Source of the DNA: Promethearchaeota archaeon | GTDB taxonomy: Archaea > Asgardarchaeota > Lokiarchaeia > Sigyniarchaeales > SOKP01 | Assembly: GCA_011364975.1 (NCBI GenBank) | Contig: RDOE01000091.1 | Coordinates: 1-12,289 of the forward strand | Length of the DNA: 12,289 nt | Reading direction: 5' to 3' | Shown: positions 1 through 12,289 of the stretch, in pieces | How the letters are laid out: each line of letters starts with the position of its first letter | Numbering within the stretch: the stretch's first letter is position 1 | Program-made: the position numbers and the translations under genes | Notes under the pieces: model-generated | The model's input: the letters and a program-made list of their open reading frames with translations, nothing else | The model's database searches: none | What the model was told of the DNA's origin: nothing

Positions 1-365
1 ATAAGAAAATCATTAGAATTGATTACTCCGATACCTTCAGAGAGGATTACTCTCTCATTTTCTTTAAAGATATAATGTACTAAATCCATCGGATGAATAA
101 TCTTTATAATGTTATCCTTGAATAACACCTTAAATTTAGTGATAAACGAAGTATCCTCCTTATCTAAAGATTTAGATGTTGGAATTTCAATAATTTTAAC
201 GATTCTTCCAATTCCTAATGATTGATTTAATCGAAATAATACTAAATTATCTAAATTAAAGTTATGTCCTTGACAATAGAGATTAAAACATTTTGAGAAT
301 CTATATTCTACCGAATTACCACAAAAAGGACATTTATATTTAGATTCGTTAATGGTAATAATCAC
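1..365 (-). CDS. Partial CDS (3' end outside window): N-terminal Zn ribbon followed by Tudor-like segments, probably a RapA/HepA-like SNF2 helicase
   Basis: Not in the ORF track; translated by hand. GTG at 365-363 opens a frame with no stop to the window edge (in-frame TGA upstream at 392-390): MIITINESKYKCPFCGNSVEYRFSKCFNLYCQGHNFNLDNLVLFRLNQSLGIGRIVKII...KFKVLFKDNIIKIIHPMDLVHYIFKENERVILSEGIGVINSNDFL. It has a CxxC-x10-Cx4C Zn ribbon. 'LGIGRIV..VLF..IFKENERV' resembles the RapA N-terminal Tudor region (ELGLGTVV..LLF..MFNPGDTI). Helicase motifs are not visible in the window. Confidence 0.6.
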   Translation of the reverse strand, partial: MIITINESKYKCPFCGNSVEYRFSKCFNLYCQGHNFNLDNLVLFRLNQSLGIGRIVKIIEIPTSKSLDKEDTSFITKFKVLFKDNIIKIIHPMDLVHYIFKENERVILSEGIGVINSNDFL

Positions 366-447: not shown

Positions 448-1311
448 ATGACTGAAGAAAAAGTAGAACCTACCTATGTAGGTGAAAATGATAATTTAGT
501 TTTTATTGTACCTAAAGAATTATTTACAATGAAATTAAGCTCTGAAGAAAAACTTGATCGGAAAATTGCTAATGAATTTAGTAAATACTTGACTGGAACC
601 TTTAAAGGTTTCCAAAAAGCCAATAAAACAAAATATAATAATAAGGATAATTCTAACACTGTGGTTCCTACGGAGGGTTGGGATAAATTTAGAAAATTAG
701 CTGCCGATAAAGGAATTGATCTTATTGGTTTCACTCCCGTCCTCAAAAATTTTATTTTTAAAAACCTACCGGTAGTCGGTAAAAATGCGATTGTGCTTGG
801 TATGCAGATGGATTGGAATAAAATAAAAACTGCACCCAGTATTTTATGCGGAATTGAGGCATTTAGAGTATATTATGAATTAGGAGAGTTAACAATAGAA
901 TTAACAGAATATTTGCAGAACTTAGGTTATAAAGCCGAAGCCCATCATCCTTTTGGAGGTAAATTATTGTTTACAGCACATGCAGTTGCTGCTGGGTTAG
1001 GATATATGGGAAGAAATGGATTAGTGATTACTCCAGAATTTGGACCTCGACAAAGATGGAGTATGATTACCACCGATGCAGAAATTCCAAGGGAACAAAG
1101 AAGAGATTTTACAGATCTAATCGATTTCTGTCAAACTTGTGGTTTATGTATTGAAAATTGCCTTGGTAAAGCCACTTTAGATGAACCTATTGAAAAAATT
1201 GAGGGCTCAGGGATAATTACTCATATTGATCGCCGAAAATGTATTGAAAGTCTTCTAATGAATAATTATTGTTCAAATTGTTTGAAAGTGTGTCCTCAGG
1301 GAAGAAAATGA
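448..1311 (+). CDS. Reductive dehalogenase (RdhA)/epoxyqueuosine reductase (QueG)-family cobalamin and 2x[4Fe-4S] protein, short cytoplasmic form
   Basis: Motifs GIDLIGFT, NAIVLGMQMD, YLQNLGYKA, AVAAGLGYMGRNGLVITPEFGPRQR..ITTD, then FCQTCGLCIENCL and KC-x8-CSNCLKVCP. This is the characteristic RdhA/QueG core. No twin-arginine signal and no adjacent rdhB-like membrane anchor gene. Confidence 0.75.
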   Translation: MTEEKVEPTYVGENDNLVFIVPKELFTMKLSSEEKLDRKIANEFSKYLTGTFKGFQKANKTKYNNKDNSNTVVPTEGWDKFRKLAADKGIDLIGFTPVLKNFIFKNLPVVGKNAIVLGMQMDWNKIKTAPSILCGIEAFRVYYELGELTIELTEYLQNLGYKAEAHHPFGGKLLFTAHAVAAGLGYMGRNGLVITPEFGPRQRWSMITTDAEIPREQRRDFTDLIDFCQTCGLCIENCLGKATLDEPIEKIEGSGIITHIDRRKCIESLLMNNYCSNCLKVCPQGRK

Positions 1312-1377: not shown

Positions 1378-2769
1378 CTATTTATTCTGAAATGATTTTT
1401 TCAATTTTTTTTTTATGAGAATGATTACTAAAGTAGATAGAATTCCTAAGAGAAGAAACAGATTATACCCGGGAATGTAAGTTGTGCGATCGTGACATTC
1501 ATTATTTTCAAATACATTACCTTCGGAATATACTTCATTAAAGCATTTTTCATTTCCAATAAGGGAATTTCCTATAATCGCATTAATTTTACAATTTATA
1601 AAGTTAATTCCATATTTTTGATTGTGATTTATGTCATTTCCAGAAATAAGGCTATTTTCCAAACCATAGCAATAAAATCCATTGAAATTATTATAACTTA
1701 CATTGTTCTCTAAGAATGAATTATTACTGTTAAGCTCTAAAAAAATACCGTTGAAGTTATTGTAAGAAAAAGAGTTTTCAGAGATAGTGTTATTATCTCC
1801 ACCAAAGATATAGATACCATCCCTACGATTGTTATTTATCGAGTTTCTCTTTACTATGTTATCATGACAATTTATAAATGTTAGTCCCGTATCGCTATAA
1901 GAGAGATTTAAATTTGTAACTAATGAATTACTACAAGAAGCCATTATAATTTGGCCTGCATTAGTAAAATTGTTTGGACCCAAATTCTGCTCGTAAGTGT
2001 AGTAATAGAGCGATTTTCCATTGATTAAATTAGTAATATCAATATTTTGGTAATAATAATTCATAGTGTTAGAGGATGATATTTGTAATCCGCATTCATA
2101 CATTAAATTATTTGATAATGAATTATGGATTCCATCTAATTCTATTCCACTGTTTATAATATTGTTTAAAATTAAATTATTATCACTGTCATATAATGAT
2201 ATTCCATAATCGGAGTTATCTAGTTCAATATTTTTTGATATATTATTCATATTGCTGTAGAATAAATTTATACCATAAAAATCATTGTTAGTTGCGATGT
2301 TGCCAGAAATATTATTATTAGTACTATGACTTAAGGATATACCAGATATTTTGTTTGAAGAGCAATCACTATTTAGTATCCAGGCATTTTTAGTATACGT
2401 TAATCTTATTCCAAAATATGAATTAAAAACACTACAATTCTCAATCTTAAAGAAGACCTCAGAATTTTCAATCAAGATACAGCTCTCTGAATTATCTCCA
2501 TCTATTACCAGATTTTTAATGATATAAGGATTGGAATAAGTACCATCCCCCGTACATATTCCTGCAGCTTTCGTAACAGTCCAATTATTATTAATATGGA
2601 TTGTTCTCGAGAAAATTGAGATTTTTAGATTATTATGATTGATTATATCGTTATGATTTGAAGTTATATCACTACTTTTAACTTTAAACCTTGGGTTATT
2701 GAAATAAATTGGTGAAATTATCGTTAAAATTATTAAAATTAGTGTTGTTGTTGTTTTATTTGATTTCAT
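1378..2769 (-). CDS. Secreted/surface right-handed parallel beta-helix (NosD/CASH-repeat) protein with Loki-CTERM-like C-terminal anchor
   Basis: N-terminal hydrophobic signal (LILIILTIISPIYF), GDGTYSNPYII motif, many Asn-rich 'GI.L..S.NN.I..N' repeats, and C-terminal IPGY + transmembrane helix + Lys-rich tail (IPGYNLFLLLGILSTLVIILIKKKLKK). Confidence 0.85.
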   Translation of the reverse strand: MKSNKTTTTLILIILTIISPIYFNNPRFKVKSSDITSNHNDIINHNNLKISIFSRTIHINNNWTVTKAAGICTGDGTYSNPYIIKNLVIDGDNSESCILIENSEVFFKIENCSVFNSYFGIRLTYTKNAWILNSDCSSNKISGISLSHSTNNNISGNIATNNDFYGINLFYSNMNNISKNIELDNSDYGISLYDSDNNLILNNIINSGIELDGIHNSLSNNLMYECGLQISSSNTMNYYYQNIDITNLINGKSLYYYTYEQNLGPNNFTNAGQIIMASCSNSLVTNLNLSYSDTGLTFINCHDNIVKRNSINNNRRDGIYIFGGDNNTISENSFSYNNFNGIFLELNSNNSFLENNVSYNNFNGFYCYGLENSLISGNDINHNQKYGINFINCKINAIIGNSLIGNEKCFNEVYSEGNVFENNECHDRTTYIPGYNLFLLLGILSTLVIILIKKKLKKSFQNK

Positions 2770-2930: not shown

Positions 2931-5663
2931 TCAATTTTCTTTAATTGAATATTTTTTTTGTAAATATTCATCGATAGATTTAGCTGCTTTTTTGCCAGCA
3001 CCCATAGCGGAAATAACAGTAGCACTACCCGTTACGATATCCCCTCCTGCAAAAATCTCCTCAATATTAGTCTGACCTTCCTCATTAGTCTCAATATAAC
3101 CCCACTTATTCAACTTCAAGTCTGGAATTGATTTTGTTAAAACTGGGTTTGCTTTAGTACCTACAGCAACTATTACGGTATCAGTATCTATTAGATATTC
3201 TGAATTTTCAATAGTAATTGGACTTCTACGGCCTGATTGGTCAGGTTCTCCTAGTTTCATTTTAACTACCTCCATTTGTTTGACATTTCCAGATTCATCG
3301 CCAACGAATCTTACTGGATTAGTTAAAAATTGAAATTGAACACCCTCTTCTATAGCATGATGATATTCTTCTCTTCTAGCGGGCATCTCCTCCTCGGATC
3401 TCCTATAGACTACAATCACTCGTTCTGCACCTAATCTTAGAGCGGTTCTAGCAGAGTCTAGAGCTACATTGCCTCCTCCTATTACAGTTATGATCTTTCC
3501 TATTTTAATTGGAGTATCATACTCAGGAAACCTATAAGCTTTCATTAAATTAGATCGTGTTAGAAATTCATTAGCTGATAGAACACCATTCAAGTTCAAT
3601 CCTGAAATGTTCAAGAACATGGGTAGACCTGCTCCAACTCCTATAAAGAAAGCTTTAAATCCCATCTCTTTCAAATCTTCGAATGATAACGTTTTTCCGA
3701 TAATGGCATTATAGTTAACTTTTACATCTAACATTTTAAGAGTTTCAATCTCATCTTTAACAATTTCTTTCGGTAACCTGAATTCAGGAATTCCATAAGT
3801 TAATACACCACCTCCTGCATGAAAAGCCTCAAATATAGTAACATCATACCCTCTCATAGCTAATTCTCCTGCACATGCTAATCCAGCAGGTCCGGAGCCA
3901 ATAACTGCTACCTTTATATTCGTAGGAGGAGCACACTCTGGGCACTCTTTTAATTTATTTCTTCTCTCCCAATCAGCAATATACCTCTCTAAATATCCAA
4001 TTGCTATAGGTTCTCCAAGCGAACCTAATAAGCATGAATTTTCACATTGTGTTTCTTGGGGACATACACGTCCGCAAATTGCAGGTAATAAATTACTTGA
4101 TTTTATTTTATAAAGAGCAGCAACATGTTTCTCTTCTCTAAGAAGTTTTATAAATTCAGGAATTCGGATATTCACCGGACAACCAGTCACACATAAAGGT
4201 AAACCACATTGTAAACATCTTTGCACCTCTAATTTCATCATTTCATCGGTTAATCCATAAGGAACTTCTTCAAAATTAGTGATTCTTTCGTTGGGAGGTT
4301 GTTCTACCATCTTTACTCTTCTTTGATCAACATAATTCTTTAATTTAGATAAGGCAATTCTGCTTAACTCCTCAAAGCTTTTACTTTCTTCTTGAATATC
4401 CTTTTTTGTGATTAAATTCATATCTAAGGCTTTTTGAAAAAACTCGGCACCTCTTTTAGTTCGAATAATAACAGTTGACCATCCTGGTTCTGAACCTATA
4501 GATCCTACTGAAATATCTGCATATTCTGCAGTTAAGTCATCACAAAAGAAGCATCCAAATCGGCCGTATTTCTTGATTCTTTTGATAGGAATATTAGAGA
4601 TGTTGCTTTCTTGGTCGTAAATGATGAATTTACCTTTATCTATATTCATTTTTTTAATATCAGATGGATAAACTTGGAATTCATTTTTTAATAATTCTAC
4701 AATTTTATCATAATCAAAAGATTCCATACAAAATAAGCCAATTTTTAGAACAATATTATCATAAAATGGTTTATTAAACGGAAAAAAGGAGATCTTTCTA
4801 AGAGCTTTCATAATACATGGAGTCCCTACTACTGCAATTTTGTCATGATCTCTAGCATCGTGAAATATTTTAAGTACTGGAACATTTGTATACTTGGTTC
4901 CGGCAGTTTTTAAGAGGTCCTCCTCATTTTCTATTAAAATAGGCAAAGGTTTTAACGGTTTATCTCCTATGGTAACCGCGAAAGATCCGTTAATGTAACC
5001 TTGCTTAAAAGCGGTCTTGAGAAGAGTTGTTACGATTCCTCCATCTTGTGCTACTGACTTTATCCTAGGTTCGGTTGTTTGAGCCGTAAAAAGATCACGG
5101 TAACAATTGAATTGTTTCGTAAACTTGATATTAGGATCGTGATTTTCCTCTAATTTTTCTAATTCCTTGGAAAAAAATGATCGTGGACAAGCTGAGAAGC
5201 ATAATCCACAATTTACGCACAAGTCTTCGTTGATTTCAAAGGAACCCTCTGAATAATCAATCGCATTAACGGGGCAAATTGCAACACATAAACCGCACCC
5301 ACAACAAAGGTTTTTTTCTTTAATTAGCTTTGTACTCGGAAATATCCCTTTCTTTTCAGAGTTTTCAATAATTTCTTTGAAAAACCTTGGGTGTTTATCT
5401 ACAAATGCTAATAAGCCTAATTCTTTTAAATATTCGATATTATTAAGAATATTCTCTTCGGGTAATTCTAACTCATTCTGAATTTTTTTAATATCAATTT
5501 GACCATCATTTTTGATTTTTTCTAAAATCCTGAATCTTTCATTTTCTGCTTCCGTTAATGAATTAATTAATTTTTCGAATTCATTTTGATTATATTTGCC
5601 AATCTCTAAGATTTTAGTTTTATGTTCCATTAACAGTTCAATTAAAGGAGATTTAACTTGCAT
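2931..5663 (-). CDS. Fusion protein: wHTH-like domain + 2[4Fe-4S] ferredoxin + FrhB/FpoF-type (F420-binding) flavoprotein + NfnB/NfnL (SudA/GltD-like) NADPH-binding bifurcating subunit
   Basis: Ferredoxin (~5330-5180): CCGCGLCVAICP and CVNCGLCFSACP. FrhB (~5100-4340): AQDGGIVT, TAGTKYT, VGTPC, IGLFCMESF, GCFFC, ADISVGSIG..GWSTVIIRT. NfnL (~4320-2931): ERITNFEEV..RCLQC..CVTGCP, GRVCPQETQCENSC, IGYLERY, GSGPAG, YGIPEFRLP, GGGNVALD..YRR, FAGGDIVTGSATVISAMGAG. Confidence 0.9.
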   Translation of the reverse strand: MQVKSPLIELLMEHKTKILEIGKYNQNEFEKLINSLTEAENERFRILEKIKNDGQIDIKKIQNELELPEENILNNIEYLKELGLLAFVDKHPRFFKEIIENSEKKGIFPSTKLIKEKNLCCGCGLCVAICPVNAIDYSEGSFEINEDLCVNCGLCFSACPRSFFSKELEKLEENHDPNIKFTKQFNCYRDLFTAQTTEPRIKSVAQDGGIVTTLLKTAFKQGYINGSFAVTIGDKPLKPLPILIENEEDLLKTAGTKYTNVPVLKIFHDARDHDKIAVVGTPCIMKALRKISFFPFNKPFYDNIVLKIGLFCMESFDYDKIVELLKNEFQVYPSDIKKMNIDKGKFIIYDQESNISNIPIKRIKKYGRFGCFFCDDLTAEYADISVGSIGSEPGWSTVIIRTKRGAEFFQKALDMNLITKKDIQEESKSFEELSRIALSKLKNYVDQRRVKMVEQPPNERITNFEEVPYGLTDEMMKLEVQRCLQCGLPLCVTGCPVNIRIPEFIKLLREEKHVAALYKIKSSNLLPAICGRVCPQETQCENSCLLGSLGEPIAIGYLERYIADWERRNKLKECPECAPPTNIKVAVIGSGPAGLACAGELAMRGYDVTIFEAFHAGGGVLTYGIPEFRLPKEIVKDEIETLKMLDVKVNYNAIIGKTLSFEDLKEMGFKAFFIGVGAGLPMFLNISGLNLNGVLSANEFLTRSNLMKAYRFPEYDTPIKIGKIITVIGGGNVALDSARTALRLGAERVIVVYRRSEEEMPARREEYHHAIEEGVQFQFLTNPVRFVGDESGNVKQMEVVKMKLGEPDQSGRRSPITIENSEYLIDTDTVIVAVGTKANPVLTKSIPDLKLNKWGYIETNEEGQTNIEEIFAGGDIVTGSATVISAMGAGKKAAKSIDEYLQKKYSIKEN

Positions 5664-5664
5664 T

Positions 5665-6549
5665 TTAAGAGACCTCCTCTTGAAATTTATTCATTGCTTT
5701 ACATTCGTGATCATATTGCTTAAGCGATTGCTTTTCTTGTTCAATAAATCTTATTGAGCGGGTTAATAAATTATCGAAATCAACCATATGAGCGTCCACA
5801 TCTGGTCCATCTACACAGGCATAATATATATCTCCATCAATTGTGGAAAAACGACATCCTCCACACATACCTGTTCCATCAATCATTATAGTATTTAGCG
5901 AGGCATAAGTTTTTACCTTAGGTAAATCTCCAGAACCGTCAGTTGTGAGAGCTACATATTTCATCATTATTAATGGCCCAATTGCAATTACAATGCTTAT
6001 TTTCTGCTTGATTATTAACTCCTTTAATGGAGCTGTTACCACTCCTTTAATACCTTCAGTTCCATCGTCAGTACAAATTATCAATTCGTCACTTACACTT
6101 CTCATTTTCTCACGCCAAAATAACAAATCGGTATTTCTAGCTCCGATGATCGTGATGACTGTATTTCCTGCTTCTTTTAACTCTTTGGCTTGAGGATAAC
6201 AAGGAGCGAGCCCAACCCCACCCCCAATTATAATAACAGGATATTCATACTTTTGAATGTGTATTTTGTTTCCTAAAGGTCCCACAACATCAAGAATCTC
6301 ATCACCAACATTTTGATGTGAGAGTAATTTTGTGCTTTTACCAACAACTTGATAGACTATTGTTATGGTTCCTTTATCCCTATCATAATCAGCAATGGTT
6401 AATGGAAATCTTTCTCCAGTTTCATTTATACGTAGGAGTATAAAATTACCAGCATATGCTTTTTGAGCAATTAATGGTGTATCGAGAACCATCTCAAATA
6501 ATACACCACTTTTCCCTAATTCCCTCTTTTCTAAAATTTTATATGGCAT
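5665..6549 (-). CDS. nfnA: NADH-dependent reduced ferredoxin:NADP+ oxidoreductase small subunit (NfnA/NfnS, SudB/PyrK-like; FAD, [2Fe-2S])
   Basis: GERFPLTIAD, VVGKST, VVGPLG, IGGGVG, TDDGT.G.KG.VT, IGPLIMM, and SLNTIMIDGTGMCGGCR...CVDGP (Asp/Cys3 [2Fe-2S] motif). It lies directly upstream of an NfnL-containing gene. Confidence 0.9.
   Translation of the reverse strand: MPYKILEKRELGKSGVLFEMVLDTPLIAQKAYAGNFILLRINETGERFPLTIADYDRDKGTITIVYQVVGKSTKLLSHQNVGDEILDVVGPLGNKIHIQKYEYPVIIIGGGVGLAPCYPQAKELKEAGNTVITIIGARNTDLLFWREKMRSVSDELIICTDDGTEGIKGVVTAPLKELIIKQKISIVIAIGPLIMMKYVALTTDGSGDLPKVKTYASLNTIMIDGTGMCGGCRFSTIDGDIYYACVDGPDVDAHMVDFDNLLTRSIRFIEQEKQSLKQYDHECKAMNKFQEEVS
5672..5677 (-). promoter_or_regulatory. 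Shine-Dalgarno site (GGAGGT) of the FrhB-NfnL fusion gene, embedded in the nfnA 3' end
   Basis: Minus strand reads GAGGAGGTCTCTTAAAATG. GGAGGT lies 8 nt before the ATG at 5663, and the nfnA stop is 1 nt from this ATG, which suggests translational coupling. Confidence 0.7.
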
Positions 6550-6709
6550 GGTTAATCAATAACTTTTCAATAACAAAATTTAAATTGATTATCTTTAAGC
6601 GATCTAAATTAATCAATTATTTTTAAATTGATGATTATGAAAATGTAAAGCGGATTTAGTTGGTAATAATTTTTATTACTGTAATGCTTAAATAAATAAA
6701 TTATAAAAA

Positions 6710-9463
6710 TTAATTAAGGAAGAGTAGTTTCCCTAGAAAAGTAGTTAGATCCATTATTTTCAATTTGCTCTTTTGTTCCTTATTTTCGTTCAGGTAACAA
6801 TTAAGATGGGCTAAACATTTCGGACAACTTACGATTAAGTAATCAGCACCAGTATCGATAGCCTCTTTAATGCGATCTGCTTGTATCATTCTTGAATACT
6901 CATTACAACTTATATATGAGGACACTCCACAGCATAATGCATCAGCTTTATTACTCTTCATCTCAATCAATTCAATAAACGGGATTTTTTTAAGTAGTTC
7001 ACGTGGAGGGTCATAAACTTTGCTCATTCTTCCTAATCTGCAAGCATCATGATAAGTAACTTTAATCTTTTCCATAATGGGAAATTTTAAATCCTCTAAT
7101 ATATGTTCTTTTAATAGGTATTCAGTTATATGGTAAATTTCAAAATCGAATTCTTGGGAATCTTTAAACAATTTTGGATATTCAAATTTCCATGTGTAAT
7201 ATCCTTCGGCGCAACTAAAAATTAGTGTTTTTACTCCAGCATCTTTAAATAATTTAACATTATATCGTGCTAATTTCTCGAATGAAACCATATCTCCTTG
7301 CCATAAACTATCATGTCCGCAACATTTTTCATTTGAGAGAACCACAGGCGAGATTTCGTTATGATTTAACAAACCTATTACTGTTTTTGGAATTTCTAAG
7401 AAATCTTGGGCTTCATAACATTGGTAAGTAGATTGAAATCCATAGGAACATTCTTGTATATTAGATTCATCACACGCATTACTATAAGCTTCAAGTTTTT
7501 GATCAGTACTACAACAGATATTGCAATTTAAACATCTTCTTGCCTCTTGAATTGCCCTATCCTCAGTCATACCCAATTCAACTTCATCAAATCCTCTTAA
7601 TCTTTTTTCCAATGGTAATATATCTAAAGTTTCTTTTGGTAACTCTCTTGCGTCTTTTTTTGGAATGGGAGCTACTTTTGCATATTGTCTTAAGGTTCTA
7701 TTTTGCTTCAAATCAATACCTCTCAAGTATCTATCTATGGATTCTGCAGCATCATATCCGTGGGCAATTGCCCTAATTGCGATTCCTTCACCTTCAATAA
7801 CATCACCACCAGCAAATATATTTGGAATATTAGTTTGTAAAGTGATTTCATCAGTTTCTATCTTACCCCATCTATCGATTTTTAATTGATCATGAGCAGC
7901 TTCTAATAGTGTAAAATCAGTACCTTGCCCTATTGCGAGGATCATAACATCAATATTCATTTTGAATTCGGAACCTTCAATTGGGATGGGACGCCTACGT
8001 CCTGAAGGATCGGGCTCACCAAGTTCCATTCTTATACATTCTACCTCTTTTATATTTCCTTGTTCATCCCCTATTACTCTTATAGGATTAGTTAAGAATT
8101 GAAAATCGATATTTTCTTCTTTAGCCATCTCGATTTCTTCTTCTGAAGCTGGCATTTCTTGTTCAGAACGTCTATATATAACAATGACCTTCTTGGCACC
8201 TAATCTTAAAGCAGTTCTTGCCGAATCCATGGCCACATTTCCACCTCCAACAACACCGATAATCTTATCTTTAAATTCGAACTGCTTTTTAGTTAGGTTT
8301 TTTTGTTTGAGAAAGTTAAGACCGCATAATACGTTTTTCAGATCAGCACCCTCAATTTTCATTTCTAAACAAGTTTGTTGACCAATTGAGATAAAAAATG
8401 CTTTAAATCCTTGCTTCTCTAAATTTTCAAAACTTAAGCTTGGACCTACAGGTGTGTTAAGTTTAATTTTTACACCCATACTTTCGATAAATTCAATTTC
8501 ATGATCTAAAATATAAGCTGGTAAACGATATCTTGGAATTCCAGACCTTAAAGTACCTCCTTTATAAATCTCCGCCTCAAAAACAGAAGGTTTGTATCCT
8601 TTTCTTGCTAAATAATAAGCTGCTGATAACCCTCCCGGTCCTGCGCCTATTATTGCAACTTTTCCTTTCTTTTGCTCAACAGGTTTAATCGTTGATTCAA
8701 GATTATTATTCAATTCATAATCTGAAATAAATCGCTTTAATGCCCGAATTGCAATAGGATCATCAATATCTTTGCGATTACAAGCTAAAGCGCAAGGTTC
8801 AGTACATATACGAGCACAAATCATTGGGAAAGGGTTTTTTTCTCTAATTAGATCAAGAGCCTCTTGAAATTTACCTTCTGCTATTAATGAAATATAACCT
8901 TGGACATCTACTCCCGCAGGACAAGCATTTGTACAGGGAGGTATTGAATTCATAAAGGGTAAGCATCCCATAAAGTACGCAATTTCACCTTTATCTGATA
9001 TTTTTAAATTTGTTGATTCTAAAAACCCTAGCTTATTATGAGTATCAATTAAATCATTTGCCATTAGATAGGGTAGATTCGAATATTCTCGATCATGATG
9101 AGCTTTTACTTTTTCTATCTCTAAGGGTTCATAGTCTGAAATAAGAGTTCTGAGATTTAATATAATATCAAGAAAGTTTACACCTGTTTTTTCTGTAAAC
9201 ATCGGACAATATTCCATACATGTTCCACAAGTTAAGCAACTCCATATATTATTACGTTCTAATGCTTCTTCTGGTGATAAGAAAGTTAAATCCATAATTA
9301 ATTGTCTTGGAAAAAAGGTGCCTATATGGGAGAGGGGACATACGTTAACACATCGATTACAGCTATAACAATAATTTGCCGCCGCTTTAACTTTATCAAT
9401 TACTGCTTTAGGAAGTTTAGTCTGTTCTTTTTTAGCGCCGTCTATATCTTTCGATTCAGTCAT
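6710..9463 (-). CDS. HdrD-like protein (HdrC 2x[4Fe-4S] + two CCG domains) with an inserted, circularly permuted GltD-type FAD/NADPH module
   Basis: HdrC: CYSCNRCVNVCP and IWSCLTCGTCMEYCP. CCG1 starts at IAYFMGCLP (~8980-8958). The insert (~8945-7511) runs PPCTNACPAG..ICTEPCALAC..LKRF..GAGPGG..GIPRYRLP..GGGNVAMD..YRR..FAGGD..EARRCLNC. CCG1 resumes at EKCCGHD..SCAEG. CCG2 is VTYHDACRLGR..LCCG..SCPKC. Confidence 0.85.
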   Translation of the reverse strand: MTESKDIDGAKKEQTKLPKAVIDKVKAAANYCYSCNRCVNVCPLSHIGTFFPRQLIMDLTFLSPEEALERNNIWSCLTCGTCMEYCPMFTEKTGVNFLDIILNLRTLISDYEPLEIEKVKAHHDREYSNLPYLMANDLIDTHNKLGFLESTNLKISDKGEIAYFMGCLPFMNSIPPCTNACPAGVDVQGYISLIAEGKFQEALDLIREKNPFPMICARICTEPCALACNRKDIDDPIAIRALKRFISDYELNNNLESTIKPVEQKKGKVAIIGAGPGGLSAAYYLARKGYKPSVFEAEIYKGGTLRSGIPRYRLPAYILDHEIEFIESMGVKIKLNTPVGPSLSFENLEKQGFKAFFISIGQQTCLEMKIEGADLKNVLCGLNFLKQKNLTKKQFEFKDKIIGVVGGGNVAMDSARTALRLGAKKVIVIYRRSEQEMPASEEEIEMAKEENIDFQFLTNPIRVIGDEQGNIKEVECIRMELGEPDPSGRRRPIPIEGSEFKMNIDVMILAIGQGTDFTLLEAAHDQLKIDRWGKIETDEITLQTNIPNIFAGGDVIEGEGIAIRAIAHGYDAAESIDRYLRGIDLKQNRTLRQYAKVAPIPKKDARELPKETLDILPLEKRLRGFDEVELGMTEDRAIQEARRCLNCNICCSTDQKLEAYSNACDESNIQECSYGFQSTYQCYEAQDFLEIPKTVIGLLNHNEISPVVLSNEKCCGHDSLWQGDMVSFEKLARYNVKLFKDAGVKTLIFSCAEGYYTWKFEYPKLFKDSQEFDFEIYHITEYLLKEHILEDLKFPIMEKIKVTYHDACRLGRMSKVYDPPRELLKKIPFIELIEMKSNKADALCCGVSSYISCNEYSRMIQADRIKEAIDTGADYLIVSCPKCLAHLNCYLNENKEQKSKLKIMDLTTFLGKLLFLN

Positions 9464-9919: not shown

Positions 9920-9928
9920 GTGAAAAAC

Positions 9929-11854
9929 ATGAGTAAAGCGAAAGAAATAACCTTACCAGACGAGGTTAAAGGTTTTTCCCAAGTTAGACTTGATGTTGAT
10001 TTAACCACTGGAAAAATTCAAAAATCTACATTATCAAGAGAATTTTGCCGAGATTGGATTGGTGGCTATGGTTTCGGTGCAAAAGTTTTATGGGATGAAC
10101 TTAAACCAGGAGTAGATCCTTTAAGTCCAGATAATGTTTTTGTATATGCCCATGGTCCTTTTCCAACTACTATTTTGCCAACAAGTTCAAAATATGGAGT
10201 ATTTGCTAAATCACCCTTAACTAACATGTTTGGAATGGCCATTTCTTCAGGTTCGGTCGCAGCTCAAGCTCGGAGAGCAGGAGTAAACTTGATTGTCATC
10301 AAGGGTAAAGCGCCAGAACCTGTTTATATGGTTGTTGATGACGATGATCATTACCTAGTTCCTTGTGAAAAAACAGTTTGGGGCAAAGGTTGTTGGGAAA
10401 CAGAAGAAATGATTCGGGAAGAATTCCAAGATCATCGCTTAGCTGTTATGTCAATCGGTCCATCTGGAGAGCATATGAGCCACATGGCTTGCATAACCAA
10501 TGATCGCAACAGACAAGCTGGTAGAACAGGGATGGGTGCAGTTATGGGTTCTAAAAATCTAAAAGCTATTGCTTTTAGAGGTACTAAAGGGGTAAAAGTT
10601 GCGCAACCTGCAGAATTTTATAAATTAGCAAAAAAGCTAATTAAAGTTGCTAATGGCCCTGCTACTGCCAAATATAGAGATCTGGGAACCCCTGCAGGGA
10701 TTACCAGTTATAATAAACTCGGTATGATGCCTACCAATAATATGCTTGAAGGAAGTTGGGATAGAGTAGATGATGGCACTTTCACAGGAGACACACTCAA
10801 TGCAGATTGGGTGGTTAAGAAAGTTGCGTGCTCCCAATGCTCAATAGCATGTGATCATATTACTAAAGTGCCTAAAAATCATCCAAATTGGCCTAATCTC
10901 TATATTAGTATTGATCAAGAACTTTGTTATAGTTATGGTAGCGCTTGTGGGAATTATGATTGGCCAACAGTTTTCAAATGTGTGGAATTGAGTGATAATT
11001 TGGGAATTGATGCCATTTCTGGAGGAGTCACAGCCGCTATGGCCTGTAACTTATATGAGGATGGTCTTATTACAAAAGAGGATTTAGGATATGAGTTACC
11101 CTTCGGCTCTACGGTAAATCTAGCACGATTCACTGAAGAAATGTGTCTTGGTAAAGGATTTGCCGGTAAGATTTTTGGAGATGGTTGTCTTCAGGCAGGT
11201 AAAAGATTAGAAGAAATGGGGAGAAAAAATGCATCCTATTATGGAATGCATATAAAAGGGCTTGAAATGCCAGCATTTGATCTTCATGGAATGAGTACAT
11301 TTGCTGTTGGCATGAGTGTATCAGTCCGAGGGGCTTGTCACTTACGTAATGGAGCGTATGGTATCGATGCAAAAGGAACTTATGATAGATTAGCTTATGA
11401 TAAACCGGTAGAACGTGGAAAAGCTATAAAAAGTCTTGAAGATATTTACGGAATAATAGATTCTTATATTATTTGTAAATTTACTCGTGGAATTTATGAA
11501 TCAGATGATGAAATGGCAAAAGCATTCGAATTGGTTACAGGAATTCCACATACCGGAGACTCAATAAATCTTAGAGGCGATTCAATCGTTACTCTCTCTC
11601 GATGTTTTAATATTCGAGAAGGATGGACACGAGCCGATGATCATCCACCTGCAAGATTCTTTAAAGAAGCTCACACTAGAGGACCTAACAAAGGTGTGAC
11701 CTTAAAAGAAGATGGTTATCAGAAATTATTAAGTGGATACTTTGAAGCTAGAGGATATGATAAAGAGACAGGAATACCTACTGATGCTACGTTGAAGAAA
11801 TTAGGATTAGATTTTGTAATTGGGAAACTAAAGTCAACCGGAGGTAAGAAGTAG
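9929..11854 (+). CDS. aor: Tungsten-containing aldehyde:ferredoxin oxidoreductase (AOR/WOR family)
   Basis: WIGGYG, KSPLT, IGPSGE, AGRTGMGAVMGSKNLKAI, GTP, CSQCSIAC [4Fe-4S] motif, DNLGIDAIS, KGLEMPAFD, RGACHL, FNIREG..DD..P.RF. ATG at 9929 is preferred; the ORF track uses the in-frame GTG at 9920. Confidence 0.92.
   Translation: MSKAKEITLPDEVKGFSQVRLDVDLTTGKIQKSTLSREFCRDWIGGYGFGAKVLWDELKPGVDPLSPDNVFVYAHGPFPTTILPTSSKYGVFAKSPLTNMFGMAISSGSVAAQARRAGVNLIVIKGKAPEPVYMVVDDDDHYLVPCEKTVWGKGCWETEEMIREEFQDHRLAVMSIGPSGEHMSHMACITNDRNRQAGRTGMGAVMGSKNLKAIAFRGTKGVKVAQPAEFYKLAKKLIKVANGPATAKYRDLGTPAGITSYNKLGMMPTNNMLEGSWDRVDDGTFTGDTLNADWVVKKVACSQCSIACDHITKVPKNHPNWPNLYISIDQELCYSYGSACGNYDWPTVFKCVELSDNLGIDAISGGVTAAMACNLYEDGLITKEDLGYELPFGSTVNLARFTEEMCLGKGFAGKIFGDGCLQAGKRLEEMGRKNASYYGMHIKGLEMPAFDLHGMSTFAVGMSVSVRGACHLRNGAYGIDAKGTYDRLAYDKPVERGKAIKSLEDIYGIIDSYIICKFTRGIYESDDEMAKAFELVTGIPHTGDSINLRGDSIVTLSRCFNIREGWTRADDHPPARFFKEAHTRGPNKGVTLKEDGYQKLLSGYFEARGYDKETGIPTDATLKKLGLDFVIGKLKSTGGKK
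11840..11845 (+). promoter_or_regulatory. Shine-Dalgarno site (GGAGGT) for the downstream Fe-S subunit gene
   Basis: CCGGAGGTAAGAAGTAGAATG: GGAGGT lies 10 nt before the ATG at 11856, and the aor stop TAG (11852-11854) is 1 nt from that ATG. Confidence 0.65.
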
Positions 11855-11855
11855 A

Positions 11856-12289
11856 ATGTCTAAAGCCATAACAACGAAAAAAAGAGGTGGCGTAGTACAC
11901 CAATTCATTGTTGTCGATCCAGATCTCTGCACTGGGTGTGAAACATGTGAAACGATATGCTCCTTTGTACATGATGGCGAATTCAATCCAATAAATACTA
12001 GAATTCATAGAGTAAGAATAGAACCTGTATTTAACATAGCTCTAGCATGCCAGAAATGTGAAGATGCACCTTGTATTCGCAGTTGTCCCGAAAAAGCCTT
12101 GGAGAAAGATGAACGAGATGGTTCTATCCTTGTAGATGACGATAAGTGTAATGGATGCGGTTATTGTGTACGTGCTTGCGATTTTGGGGTTATGACTATG
12201 CATATTACTACACAAAAAGCACTTGTATGCGATCTCTGTGAGAATATGAAAGAGGAATTTATTGATCCAGAAGTAGGGAAGAAGGAGCC
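11856..12289 (+). CDS. Partial 4x[4Fe-4S] electron-transfer subunit (DmsB/CooF/AorA-like), AOR partner
   Basis: Not in the ORF track; translated by hand: MSKAITTKKRGGVVHQFIVVDPDLCTGCETCETICSFVH...ALACQKCEDAPCIRSCPEKA...DKCNGCGYCVRACDFG...LVCDLC...KKEP, open to the window end. The Cys spacing is typical of four-cluster subunits. Confidence 0.9.
   Translation, partial: MSKAITTKKRGGVVHQFIVVDPDLCTGCETCETICSFVHDGEFNPINTRIHRVRIEPVFNIALACQKCEDAPCIRSCPEKALEKDERDGSILVDDDKCNGCGYCVRACDFGVMTMHITTQKALVCDLCENMKEEFIDPEVGKKE

Follow-up and report, generated by a model that had tools for sequence, protein, structure and literature searches.

In textbooks, the transhydrogenase Nfn connects the ferredoxin, NADH and NADPH pools of anaerobic organisms. 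Iron-sulfur routes lead out of its large subunit NfnB in two directions, one towards the small subunit NfnA and the other over the N-terminal [4Fe-4S] pair that normally serves ferredoxin. To our knowledge, the low-potential partner of every characterised flavin-based bifurcating enzyme is ferredoxin or flavodoxin. Here, we describe an nfn locus of a Promethearchaeota archaeon of the Lokiarchaeia (GenBank assembly GCA_011364975.1, contig RDOE01000091.1), in which NfnB is fused at its N-terminus to a ferredoxin domain and an FrhB-type module of the kind found in F420-dependent enzymes. The window analysed is the entire 12,289-bp contig (C196 in our numbering) of a genome bin of 3.74 Mb and 30.6% G+C in 200 contigs, with a rated completeness of 99% and contamination of 6%. 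We propose that the fused protein and its NfnA may form a bifurcating transhydrogenase of the NfnAB type with a low-potential arm wired to F420, a prediction that we regard as evenly balanced.

The attachment of an F420 reductase of the Fsr-N type, defined as an FrhB domain preceded by two ferredoxin-type [4Fe-4S] centres (PMC3448663), to a ferredoxin-dependent enzyme is established for the CODH and Fwd of “Ca. Ethanoperedens thermophilum” (PMC11493965). In these complexes, the N-terminal 2x[4Fe-4S] domain docks at the place of ferredoxin and links the distal cluster to the FAD. Assays showed that the complexes reduce F420, and that they can still use ferredoxin, though at rates eight times lower (PMC11493965). 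The window protein shares with them the ferredoxin and FrhB module and the re-plugging of a ferredoxin-dependent enzyme into F420; however, the module is a separate subunit there, whereas here it is fused to a bifurcating enzyme and has an extra N-terminal domain. Fsr (7NP8/7NPA) is, like the window protein, one polypeptide with an N-terminal ferredoxin and FrhB part fused to a C-terminal catalytic module, and its relay runs from the FAD through cluster 1 of FrhB to the N-terminal ferredoxin clusters (PMC10229431). The difference lies in the C-terminal part, which is a siroheme sulfite reductase in Fsr, where F420H2 is a plain donor and no bifurcation takes place, and an NfnB in the window protein.

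HdrA2 carries an FrhB-like domain and resembles the fusion in that an F420-oxidising function is built into a flavin-based bifurcating subunit. It differs in that this subunit is HdrA rather than NfnB, and in that F420H2 is the mid-potential donor that is bifurcated, whereas F420 would here stand on the low-potential arm. HdrA2 is listed among the bifurcating systems in PMC8498797. In the anaerobic methanotrophic archaea of group 1 (ANME-1), HdrA-NfnB fusions occur, and FrhB paralogs lie in clusters with genes for PFOR, CODH and glutamate synthase (PMC9012536). As in the present case, NfnB has there been used to build fusions, and paralogs of FrhB stand beside ferredoxin-dependent enzymes; however, the lineage is another one, the evidence is entirely genomic inference, and no FrhB-NfnB fusion was found in the text of PMC9012536. 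Putative F420-dependent glutamate synthases with separate subunits have also been described (PMC3448663). Fno, the F420H2:NADP+ oxidoreductase, would join the same F420 and NADP pools, but its fold is unrelated, and it works as a simple hydride transferase with no coupling to NAD. The full-text literature searched gave no account of an FrhB-NfnB fusion; supplements and subscription papers lay outside that search. An earlier note on this DNA, made from the letters alone, knew of no characterised enzyme of this architecture; its sense of novelty holds for the FrhB-NfnB combination, which was not found in print by this search, but not for the principle, which is already known.

Both genes of the pair were compared with family models and solved Nfn subunits. 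The 294-aa protein was recognised by the small-subunit model NF004862 (354.5 bits against an NCBIfam cut-off of 220), matched the solved small subunits of P. furiosus NfnI (5jca_S, 282.7 bits) and T. maritima NfnA (4ylf_A, 238 bits), and holds the motif DGTGMCGGCR...ACVDGP in its translation. In a TAA-a-ATG layout, one base separates nfnA from the open reading frame (ORF) of the fused gene, with GGAGG 8-12 nucleotides before the ATG, and the corresponding ORF pairs abut or overlap in two checked relatives. The earlier note had described the fused gene as translationally coupled to a canonical nfnA.

The C-terminal part of the fused protein scored 591 bits with TIGR01316, the NfnB/SudA-type “gltA” equivalog (cut-off 471.75; residues 456-901). 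Its last 465 residues aligned with T. maritima NfnB (4ylf_B; 555 bits, E 1e-165; query 3-459 to chain 4-462) and reached 521 bits with NfnI-L of P. furiosus. The alignment begins at residue 4 of T. maritima NfnB, in agreement with the previous placement of the module on the N-terminal, cluster-binding end of the large subunit. With a full-length NfnB-type large subunit, its cluster ligands and an adjacent NfnA, the pair is, by its sequence, an NfnAB. As in the NfnAB of T. maritima and P. furiosus, there are two adjacent subunits with end-to-end matches, all Cys and Glu ligands, and the FAD and NADPH motifs; the difference consists of 445 extra N-terminal residues, comprising a helical domain, a 2x[4Fe-4S] ferredoxin and FrhB. 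In contrast to plain NfnAB, the main partner on the low-potential side is probably no longer free ferredoxin.

Public databases name the protein “glutamate synthase (NADPH/NADH) small chain” or “NADPH-dependent glutamate synthase,” and according to these names it would be the small subunit of glutamate synthase (GOGAT). This is very improbable. The GOGAT small-subunit models remained below their cut-offs (TIGR01317, 265.4 against 447.7; TIGR01318, 364.7 against 482.95), the neighbouring gene is nfnA with no GltB-like gene within the window, and the NfnB part gave 555 bits end to end with solved NfnB as against 276 bits with a true GltD. The public label “glutamate synthase small chain” is a widespread mis-annotation, which is corrected here. 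In this 99%-complete genome, the fused protein was the only one to pass the NfnB-type equivalog; the other GltD-like protein of the host is 37% identical and scored 354.6 against the cut-off of 471.75. As the only NfnB-grade protein in the genome, the fusion therefore replaces plain NfnAB and does not supplement it.

Comparison of the added module with the structures in the PDB demonstrated its kinship to proven F420 reductases and placed it among the F420-using members of the FrhB family, as each of its nine top-ranking solved relatives (E <= 6.5e-46) is a subunit or domain that binds F420. The match to 8riu_B (370 aa; E 1.4e-54) took in both its ferredoxin domain and the FrhB fold, and 8rja_E (174 bits, E 3.5e-50) was the other of the two best matches. 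By length and description, we assign 8riu_B to the CODH zeta subunit and 8rja_E to the Fwd F420-reductase subunit FwdI of “Ca. Ethanoperedens thermophilum.” FrhB of M. marburgensis (3zfs_C, 171 bits), FrhB of Methanosarcina barkeri (6qgr_B, 185.8 bits) and Fsr (7npa_A and 7np8_A, 162-168 bits, with 161.6 for 7np8_A) were also among the best relatives, whereas the beta subunits of F420-dependent formate dehydrogenases were far weaker (62-77 bits). Both FrhB_FdhB domains exceeded their Pfam cut-offs (FrhB_FdhB_N at 192-266, 71.2 bits against 22; FrhB_FdhB_C at 274-425, 154 bits against 23.3) and are accompanied by four Cys for one [4Fe-4S] cluster, as in the FrhB/Fsr-N family. The Fsr-N architecture was recognised from the two CxxCxxCxxxCP motifs of the ferredoxin domain (120-130 and 149-159) and from the alignment with 8riu_B, which starts in the ferredoxin domain of the latter.

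The ligands of all three parts are intact. In the translation, the FrhB domain shows AQDGG (205-209), GTKYT (255-259), GTPC (280-283), GLFC (309-312) and CFFC (371-374), and the NfnB part shows LER (558-560), YGIPEFRLP (623-631), GGGNVA (729-734) and YRR (753-755). Every motif quoted in the earlier note was present, and the Pfam and NCBIfam matches bore out its ferredoxin, FrhB and NfnL architecture. Among 48 full-length relatives, the ferredoxin Cys (C120, C123, C126, C130, C149, C152, C155 and C159) and the FrhB Cys (C283, C312, C371 and C374) were invariant in 48/48. The same was true of the Fer4_20 ligands C483, C486, C491, C495, C534, C540, C544 and E559, with C530 conserved at 0.98; we take the assignment of residues to clusters in this domain from the published Nfn structures. 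The Glu of LER had been rightly counted among the NfnL ligands, but the accompanying count of seven Cys was one too low, as eight are conserved in the Fer4_20 domain.

The previous list of domains, correct as far as it went, overlooked the conserved helical residues 1-105. These gave only sub-threshold Pfam matches of the helix-turn-helix and winged-helix type and an atlas lead of 0.86, below the threshold of 0.9. In an AlphaFold2 model of the 910-aa protein (pLDDT, the predicted local distance difference test, 81.1; pTM, the predicted template-modelling score, 0.66), the block-mean pLDDT was 78-95 over residues 1-90 and 72 over residues 91-100, with mostly helices. The domain is possibly winged-helix-like. 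It is also present in the standalone FrhB paralogs of about 500 aa. A complex prediction of the module (106-445) with the NfnB part (446-910), made from alignment A1 with no controls, gave a score of 0.00 and a mark of 0.32 and speaks neither for nor against docking.

The distribution of the fusion was determined in 400 genomes of the phylum, namely 135 of the family of the window and 265 others, with counts made from the listed matches. The fusion was present in 59 of the 135 family genomes, in seven of the 13 genera (53 full-length, two cut by contig ends, and four fragmentary or variant), and was not found in the other 265 searched genomes. The matches listed outside the family, and the remaining ones inside it, comprised the NfnB part only, from about residue 356-460 on. 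The short matches P0144, P0155 and G213 (its contig ends at 2652) look like contig-end truncations. Among the best 120 listed clusters from a collection of 5.8 billion clustered proteins, 90 had lengths of 855-935 aa and identities of 58-94% across 94% or more of the query. Where source names were given, they pointed to Lokiarchaeota, Promethearchaeota or Hermodarchaeota bins, and the annotations read “NADPH-dependent glutamate synthase” or else [quoted passage not shown] In the library clustered at 50% identity, the family was reduced to one full-length representative and two fragments, and this collapse therefore marks a young, tight clade. A contig search with patterns of the NfnB part kept 80 loci that covered residues 356-909 only, at 49-61% identity; they were mostly bacterial, with a few Bathyarchaeia and one Methanothrix, and none was a fusion.

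Five genomes carried two copies of the fusion. In one of them, two complete fused genes stand in tandem behind one nfnA (G175:C211:65360-70843, locus L138), and their NfnB parts are 77-79% identical to that of the window protein and share a tree clade with a copy from genome G171. The two copies lie on separate contigs in G209, G226, G239 and G265. A shorter variant, an 864-aa ORF, was found in G147:C36 (locus L158, 6068-8614); its ferredoxin and FrhB part is only about 288 codons long and 50% identical, and the module appears to be partly deleted. A chimera of FrhB and NfnB type with a different layout is the 821-aa database protein P0172, in which a GltD/NfnB-like Fer4_20 and Pyr_redox_2 unit (206-603) is located inside FrhB, between FrhB_N (75-148) and FrhB_C (671-732).

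Laying the window proteins on 36 fetched loci (22 fused, 14 unfused) showed nfnA directly upstream in 22/22 fused and 14/14 unfused loci; in the fused locus of G264, nfnA is divergent, at 41% identity. Conservation and nfnA linkage, both singled out beforehand as matters to be checked, were thereby established. Median identity to the window protein in the 48-member alignment was 49% for the N-terminal domain, 65% for the ferredoxin, 60-67% for the FrhB domains and 72-77% for the NfnB domains. With its occurrence in 59/135 genomes, its constant nfnA linkage and these identities of the FrhB and ferredoxin parts, the fusion is conserved under selection. That two genes were merely joined by faulty assembly or gene calling is barely conceivable; no point in support of such an artefact was found, and it was excluded by the single ORF, the recurrence across genomes and the junction-spanning contigs. 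The window was matched by 20 contigs, all DNA, from five studies. Contigs from three studies (X3, 2931-4802; X4, 4198-5228; X9, 4003-5249) pass through the FrhB/NfnB junction without joints or indels and bridge positions 4287-4334, which disposes of the misassembly at about 4320-4340 that had been feared. The fused ORFs were likewise intact in two checked relatives (905 and 912 aa).

The genome of the host encodes the synthesis and use of F420, the presence of which had been proposed as a check. CofE (262 bits), CofD (318), CofG (366) and CofH (462) all scored above their curated cut-offs, with the CofG and CofH genes adjacent, and the F420-dependent methylene-tetrahydromethanopterin (H4MPT) dehydrogenase Mtd was found at 354 bits. 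For Mer, the best host match reached only 66 bits against a cut-off of 348.7, and no host protein exceeded the curated cut-off for Fno (24.5 against 149.8 bits). Of the 135 family genomes, 113 had a CofH match above the cut-off; in a cross-count, CofH was present in 52/59 fusion-bearing and 64/76 other genomes, which shows no association, the relatives not being independent. Fno was over its cut-off in 0/135 family genomes, and a divergent Fno-like gene (61-113 bits) was detected in 55/135. On the idea that the fusion stands in for a missing Fno, the genomes gave no usable pattern, as the Fno-like gene tracks the genus (48/54 genomes of genus g12, 2/41 of g1) and not the fusion status.

A canonical NfnAB core joined to a module that acts as a tethered ferredoxin in its solved relatives would therefore most likely catalyse an F420-coupled reaction. 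A hydride would be exchanged between NADPH and the bifurcating FAD in NfnB. The first electron would pass through the [2Fe-2S] cluster of NfnA to its FAD and on to NAD+, while the second would take the two [4Fe-4S] clusters of NfnB, at the usual docking place of free ferredoxin, to the tethered ferredoxin domain. From there, it would reach the [4Fe-4S] cluster and the FAD of FrhB, where two electrons would be gathered and passed as a hydride to F420. The net reaction, already put forward in the earlier note, would be 2 NADPH + NAD+ + F420 <-> 2 NADP+ + NADH + F420H2, and it would be reversible. The physical wire between the ferredoxin domain and the distal cluster of NfnB, the choice of F420 as the substrate and the stoichiometry are the predicted elements of this scheme. 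N-terminal polyferredoxin extensions on NfnB were also seen in other library matches (P0143, P0147, P0162 and P0230), and the occurrence of such extensions in other lineages fits the role of the NfnB N-terminus as an electron outlet.

Several points weigh against this reading, the first group concerning the partner of the FrhB domain. The module did not reach the FrhB and FpoF equivalogs (TIGR03289, 228.7 against 331.5; NF006807, 257.6 against 269; NF040616 for FpoF, 164.3 against 475) and is therefore a relative of those subunits rather than one of them. F420 binding is a prediction that cannot be read from the letters alone; in the crystals of Fsr, too, the F420 site was not resolved and is “presumably” a positively charged cleft (PMC10229431). 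Seven of the 59 fusion-bearing genomes had no CofH match, some of them being 94-99% complete. The domain might accordingly serve a partner other than F420, for example the precursor Fo or another small molecule or protein, with which the low scores against the equivalogs and the seven genomes would agree, as would the FrhB_C matches in the Synechococcus and Bacteroides controls, which fail the CofE, CofD and CofH cut-offs. We consider this quite improbable, given that the nine best solved relatives are all F420-dependent, that the host has the full CofG/H/D/E set and Mtd, and that the CofH-negative genomes are metagenome bins, some just 69-88% complete.

A second group of points concerns free ferredoxin. 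By analogy with the Ethanoperedens enzymes, F420 need not be the sole partner. The enzyme might be a redox hub in which F420 is a second entry or exit and free ferredoxin is still exchanged, so that the ferredoxin, F420, NAD and NADP pools are equilibrated. Such a role, unlikely in our view but worth keeping in mind, would be in line with the ferredoxin reduction retained by the Ethanoperedens CODH and Fwd, which bear a homologous module and are eightfold slower with this carrier (PMC11493965). Moreover, any ferredoxin-dependent Nfn function of the host must run through the fusion, the only NfnB-grade protein in the genome, and a gene pair for aldehyde:ferredoxin oxidoreductase and ferredoxin lies within the same window. 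However, nothing points to a site for free ferredoxin, and the lower ferredoxin rate in Ethanoperedens is ascribed by the authors to the module hindering access (PMC11493965).

The evolutionary history of the module is a third point. When 57 NfnB domains (42 from fused and 15 from unfused proteins) were placed on a quick maximum-likelihood tree, unfused NfnBs were nested within fused clades (support of 96 in the Shimodaira-Hasegawa-like approximate likelihood ratio test, SH-aLRT), and the well-supported branches of the tree force at least three changes between the fused and unfused states. A single fused clade was rejected by the approximately unbiased (AU) test (p = 0.005), the group having been named after the tree was seen. 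The nested unfused NfnBs and the AU result therefore indicate repeated loss or gain of the module at a single locus. In addition, three genomes of the same genus (G255, G244 and G247) carry plain nfnB within a window-like neighbourhood that comprises the aldehyde:ferredoxin oxidoreductase and ferredoxin genes, a gene like that of the 917-aa protein P0003, nfnA, nfnB, the reductive-dehalogenase-like gene and a small ORF. These syntenic loci make it evident that the module can be dispensed with. No close standalone copy of it was found in five searched genomes with unfused NfnB; the best matches there were paralogs of about 500 aa with 36-41% identity, which also cover the N-terminal domain. In the host, residues 8-440 of the fusion align with a standalone 497-aa paralog at 36% identity. 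The simplest reading is that a complete standalone protein of N-terminal domain, ferredoxin and FrhB was fused head to tail onto the NfnB N-terminus, as the alignments suggest.

The same alignment bears on the possibility that the fusion unites two unwired activities, an N-terminal F420H2:ferredoxin oxidoreductase of the FqoF/FpoF type (445 residues) and an ordinary C-terminal Nfn, held together for co-expression or channelling. The N-terminal 445 residues match the 497-aa paralog end to end and hence constitute an autonomous unit, and the module can be lost while a normal nfnAB remains. Soluble FqoF-type F420:ferredoxin oxidoreductases have been proposed for archaea with the Wood-Ljungdahl pathway (PMC10667645). 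On the whole, we regard this possibility as rather improbable, and prefer the F420-wired transhydrogenase.

The fourth difficulty with the F420-wired transhydrogenase is energetic. The midpoint potential (E0') of NAD(P)H is -320 mV. A value of -340 mV is quoted for F420 in PMC10667645. By simple arithmetic, the gain would be about 10 mV per electron onto F420, whereas ferredoxin at -420 mV would give about 50 mV. F420 is thus nearly isopotential with NAD(P)H; bifurcation gains almost nothing, and an enzyme of the Fno type would suffice. The coupling would, in turn, tie the F420 couple to 2E(NADP) - E(NAD), so that F420 could become very reduced at high NADPH and low NADH. Finally, the host has another candidate link between F420 and NAD(P). 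At G000:C40:2459-5521, a 370-aa FrhB adjoins genes for sulfhydrogenase gamma-like (ShyC/HydG/AsrB-like, 279 aa) and beta-like (ShyB/HydB/AsrA-like, 357 aa) proteins. This set is a possible non-bifurcating F420:NAD(P) oxidoreductase and weakens the case for the Nfn fusion as the sole connection between F420 and NAD(P).

The C40 gene is one of ten FrhB_C matches in the host genome, seven of which are strong. At G000:C149:30264-34787 (L178, 3265-7788), a 605-aa protein is encoded directly after the alpha, beta and gamma genes of a 2-oxoacid:ferredoxin oxidoreductase. It combines ferredoxin-like Cys motifs with FrhB and a PyrK/NfnA-like part (NF000796, 253 bits, over the cut-off; FrhB_C, 133 bits), occupies the place expected for the delta ferredoxin subunit, and resembles the FrhB-PFOR clusters of ANME-1 (PMC9012536). 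Two further clusters, G000:C145:10270-17729 and G000:C177:76-6080, each combine one or more FrhB paralogs with a CCG/HdrB-like protein, a double HdrA of about 1028 aa and MvhD, and are candidates for F420-linked HdrA complexes. Among the in-genome relatives compared with the fused module, the closest was the 497-aa FrhB paralog of the C145 cluster (36% identity). FrhB paralogs of this genome thus accompany genes for 2-oxoacid oxidoreductase, HdrA/MvhD and sulfhydrogenase-like proteins, so that several complexes with a normal link to ferredoxin are furnished with F420 modules.

The features of the nfnA-fusion locus are listed in Table 1. The AT-rich spacer in front of nfnA is predicted to be the likely promoter region of the gene pair.

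Table 1. Features of the nfnA-fusion locus in the 12,289-bp window (residue numbers refer to the 910-aa fused protein).
Feature	Position	Strand	Basis
AT-rich 160-bp spacer 5' of nfnA	6550..6709	-	sequence read
nfnA, Nfn small subunit (FAD/NAD-binding, [2Fe-2S]), 294 aa	5665..6549	-	NF004862, 354.5 bits
nfnA stop and fusion start: GGAGG 5673-5677, TAA 5665-5667, ATG 5661-5663	5661..5677	-	sequence read
Fused gene, 910 aa	2931..5663	-	single uninterrupted ORF
N-terminal helical domain, residues 1-105	5349..5663	-	no significant family
2x[4Fe-4S] ferredoxin domain, residues 106-170	5154..5348	-	Fer4_7/Fer4_9/Fer4_10 over 113-162
FrhB-type F420-oxidoreductase domain (FAD and one [4Fe-4S]), residues 184-443	4335..5114	-	Pfam, NF006807 and PDB matches
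Junction from end of FrhB C-terminal helix to natural NfnB N-terminus, residues 444-459	4287..4334	-	NfnB alignment
NfnB Fer4_20 with the [4Fe-4S] cluster pair of the low-potential arm, residues 460-570	3954..4286	-	PF14691, 127.8 bits; identical coordinates in the genome search
NfnB FAD/NADPH-binding domains, residues 584-890	2994..3914	-	Pyr_redox_2, 135.6 bits

Comparison of the remaining genes of the window with those of the relatives revealed different degrees of linkage. Positions 9920-12287 of the plus strand encode the aldehyde:ferredoxin oxidoreductase (644 aa; AFOR_N, 221 bits; AFOR_C, 309 bits) and, one nucleotide after it, a multi-[4Fe-4S] ferredoxin-like ORF that runs off the contig end; several relatives keep these two genes in synteny with the nfn locus. 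At 448-1311 (plus strand), a reductive-dehalogenase-like protein with a C-terminal 2x[4Fe-4S] part is encoded (TIGR02486, 89 bits, below the cut-off of 160), and at 3-365 (minus strand), there is a 121-aa ORF without any family. Both are kept beside the nfn locus in genomes of the same genus. The 463-aa Asn-rich protein encoded at 1378-2769 (minus strand) is a right-handed beta-helix/NosD-like protein with hydrophobic stretches at its N- and C-termini; none of the fetched relatives showed it next to nfn genes.

P0003, encoded at 6710-9463 on the minus strand, is a single polypeptide of 917 aa with an HdrC-like 2x[4Fe-4S] domain (26-88), an NfnB/GltD-like core of Fer4_20 and Pyr_redox_2 (175-569), and two CCG (HdrB-like) domains extending to residue 887. 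The best PDB relatives of the core are NfnB-like domains of large bifurcating complexes (9bov_A, 9n5u_A and 8oh5_C), with T. maritima NfnB at 345 bits, and the protein looks like a candidate NADPH-linked heterodisulfide-type reductase. Its gene adjoins nfnA in only seven of the fetched family loci, with fused and unfused nfnB alike. P0003 was rejected as a part of the system on account of this irregular linkage and its occurrence irrespective of the fusion state.

In conclusion, if the F420-wired transhydrogenase is confirmed, a low-potential arm ending in F420 would represent a new reaction type, and bifurcation onto a carrier nearly isopotential with the donor would pose a thermodynamic puzzle. 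The proposal is directly testable with two genes, known cofactors and a spectrophotometric F420 read-out, and the syntenic relatives with plain nfnB provide a natural deletion control for the module. In Lokiarchaeia, the source of F420H2 for the H4MPT-type Wood-Ljungdahl pathway during fermentation is unsettled, and soluble FqoF-type reductases have been proposed (PMC10667645). The enzyme might supply F420H2 to the reductive branch of this pathway during fermentation or, in the other direction, re-oxidise F420H2 and make NADPH. A more far-reaching and distinctly less probable proposal is that it is a ferredoxin-free bifurcating enzyme coupling NADPH, NAD+ and F420, with F420H2 acting as a ferredoxin-like low-potential currency and soluble ferredoxin-dependent enzymes being systematically re-plugged into F420 in this one family of Lokiarchaeia. 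Its occurrence in Lokiarchaeia adds to the interest of the enzyme, as the redox metabolism of this group feeds the models of the archaeal host in eukaryogenesis.

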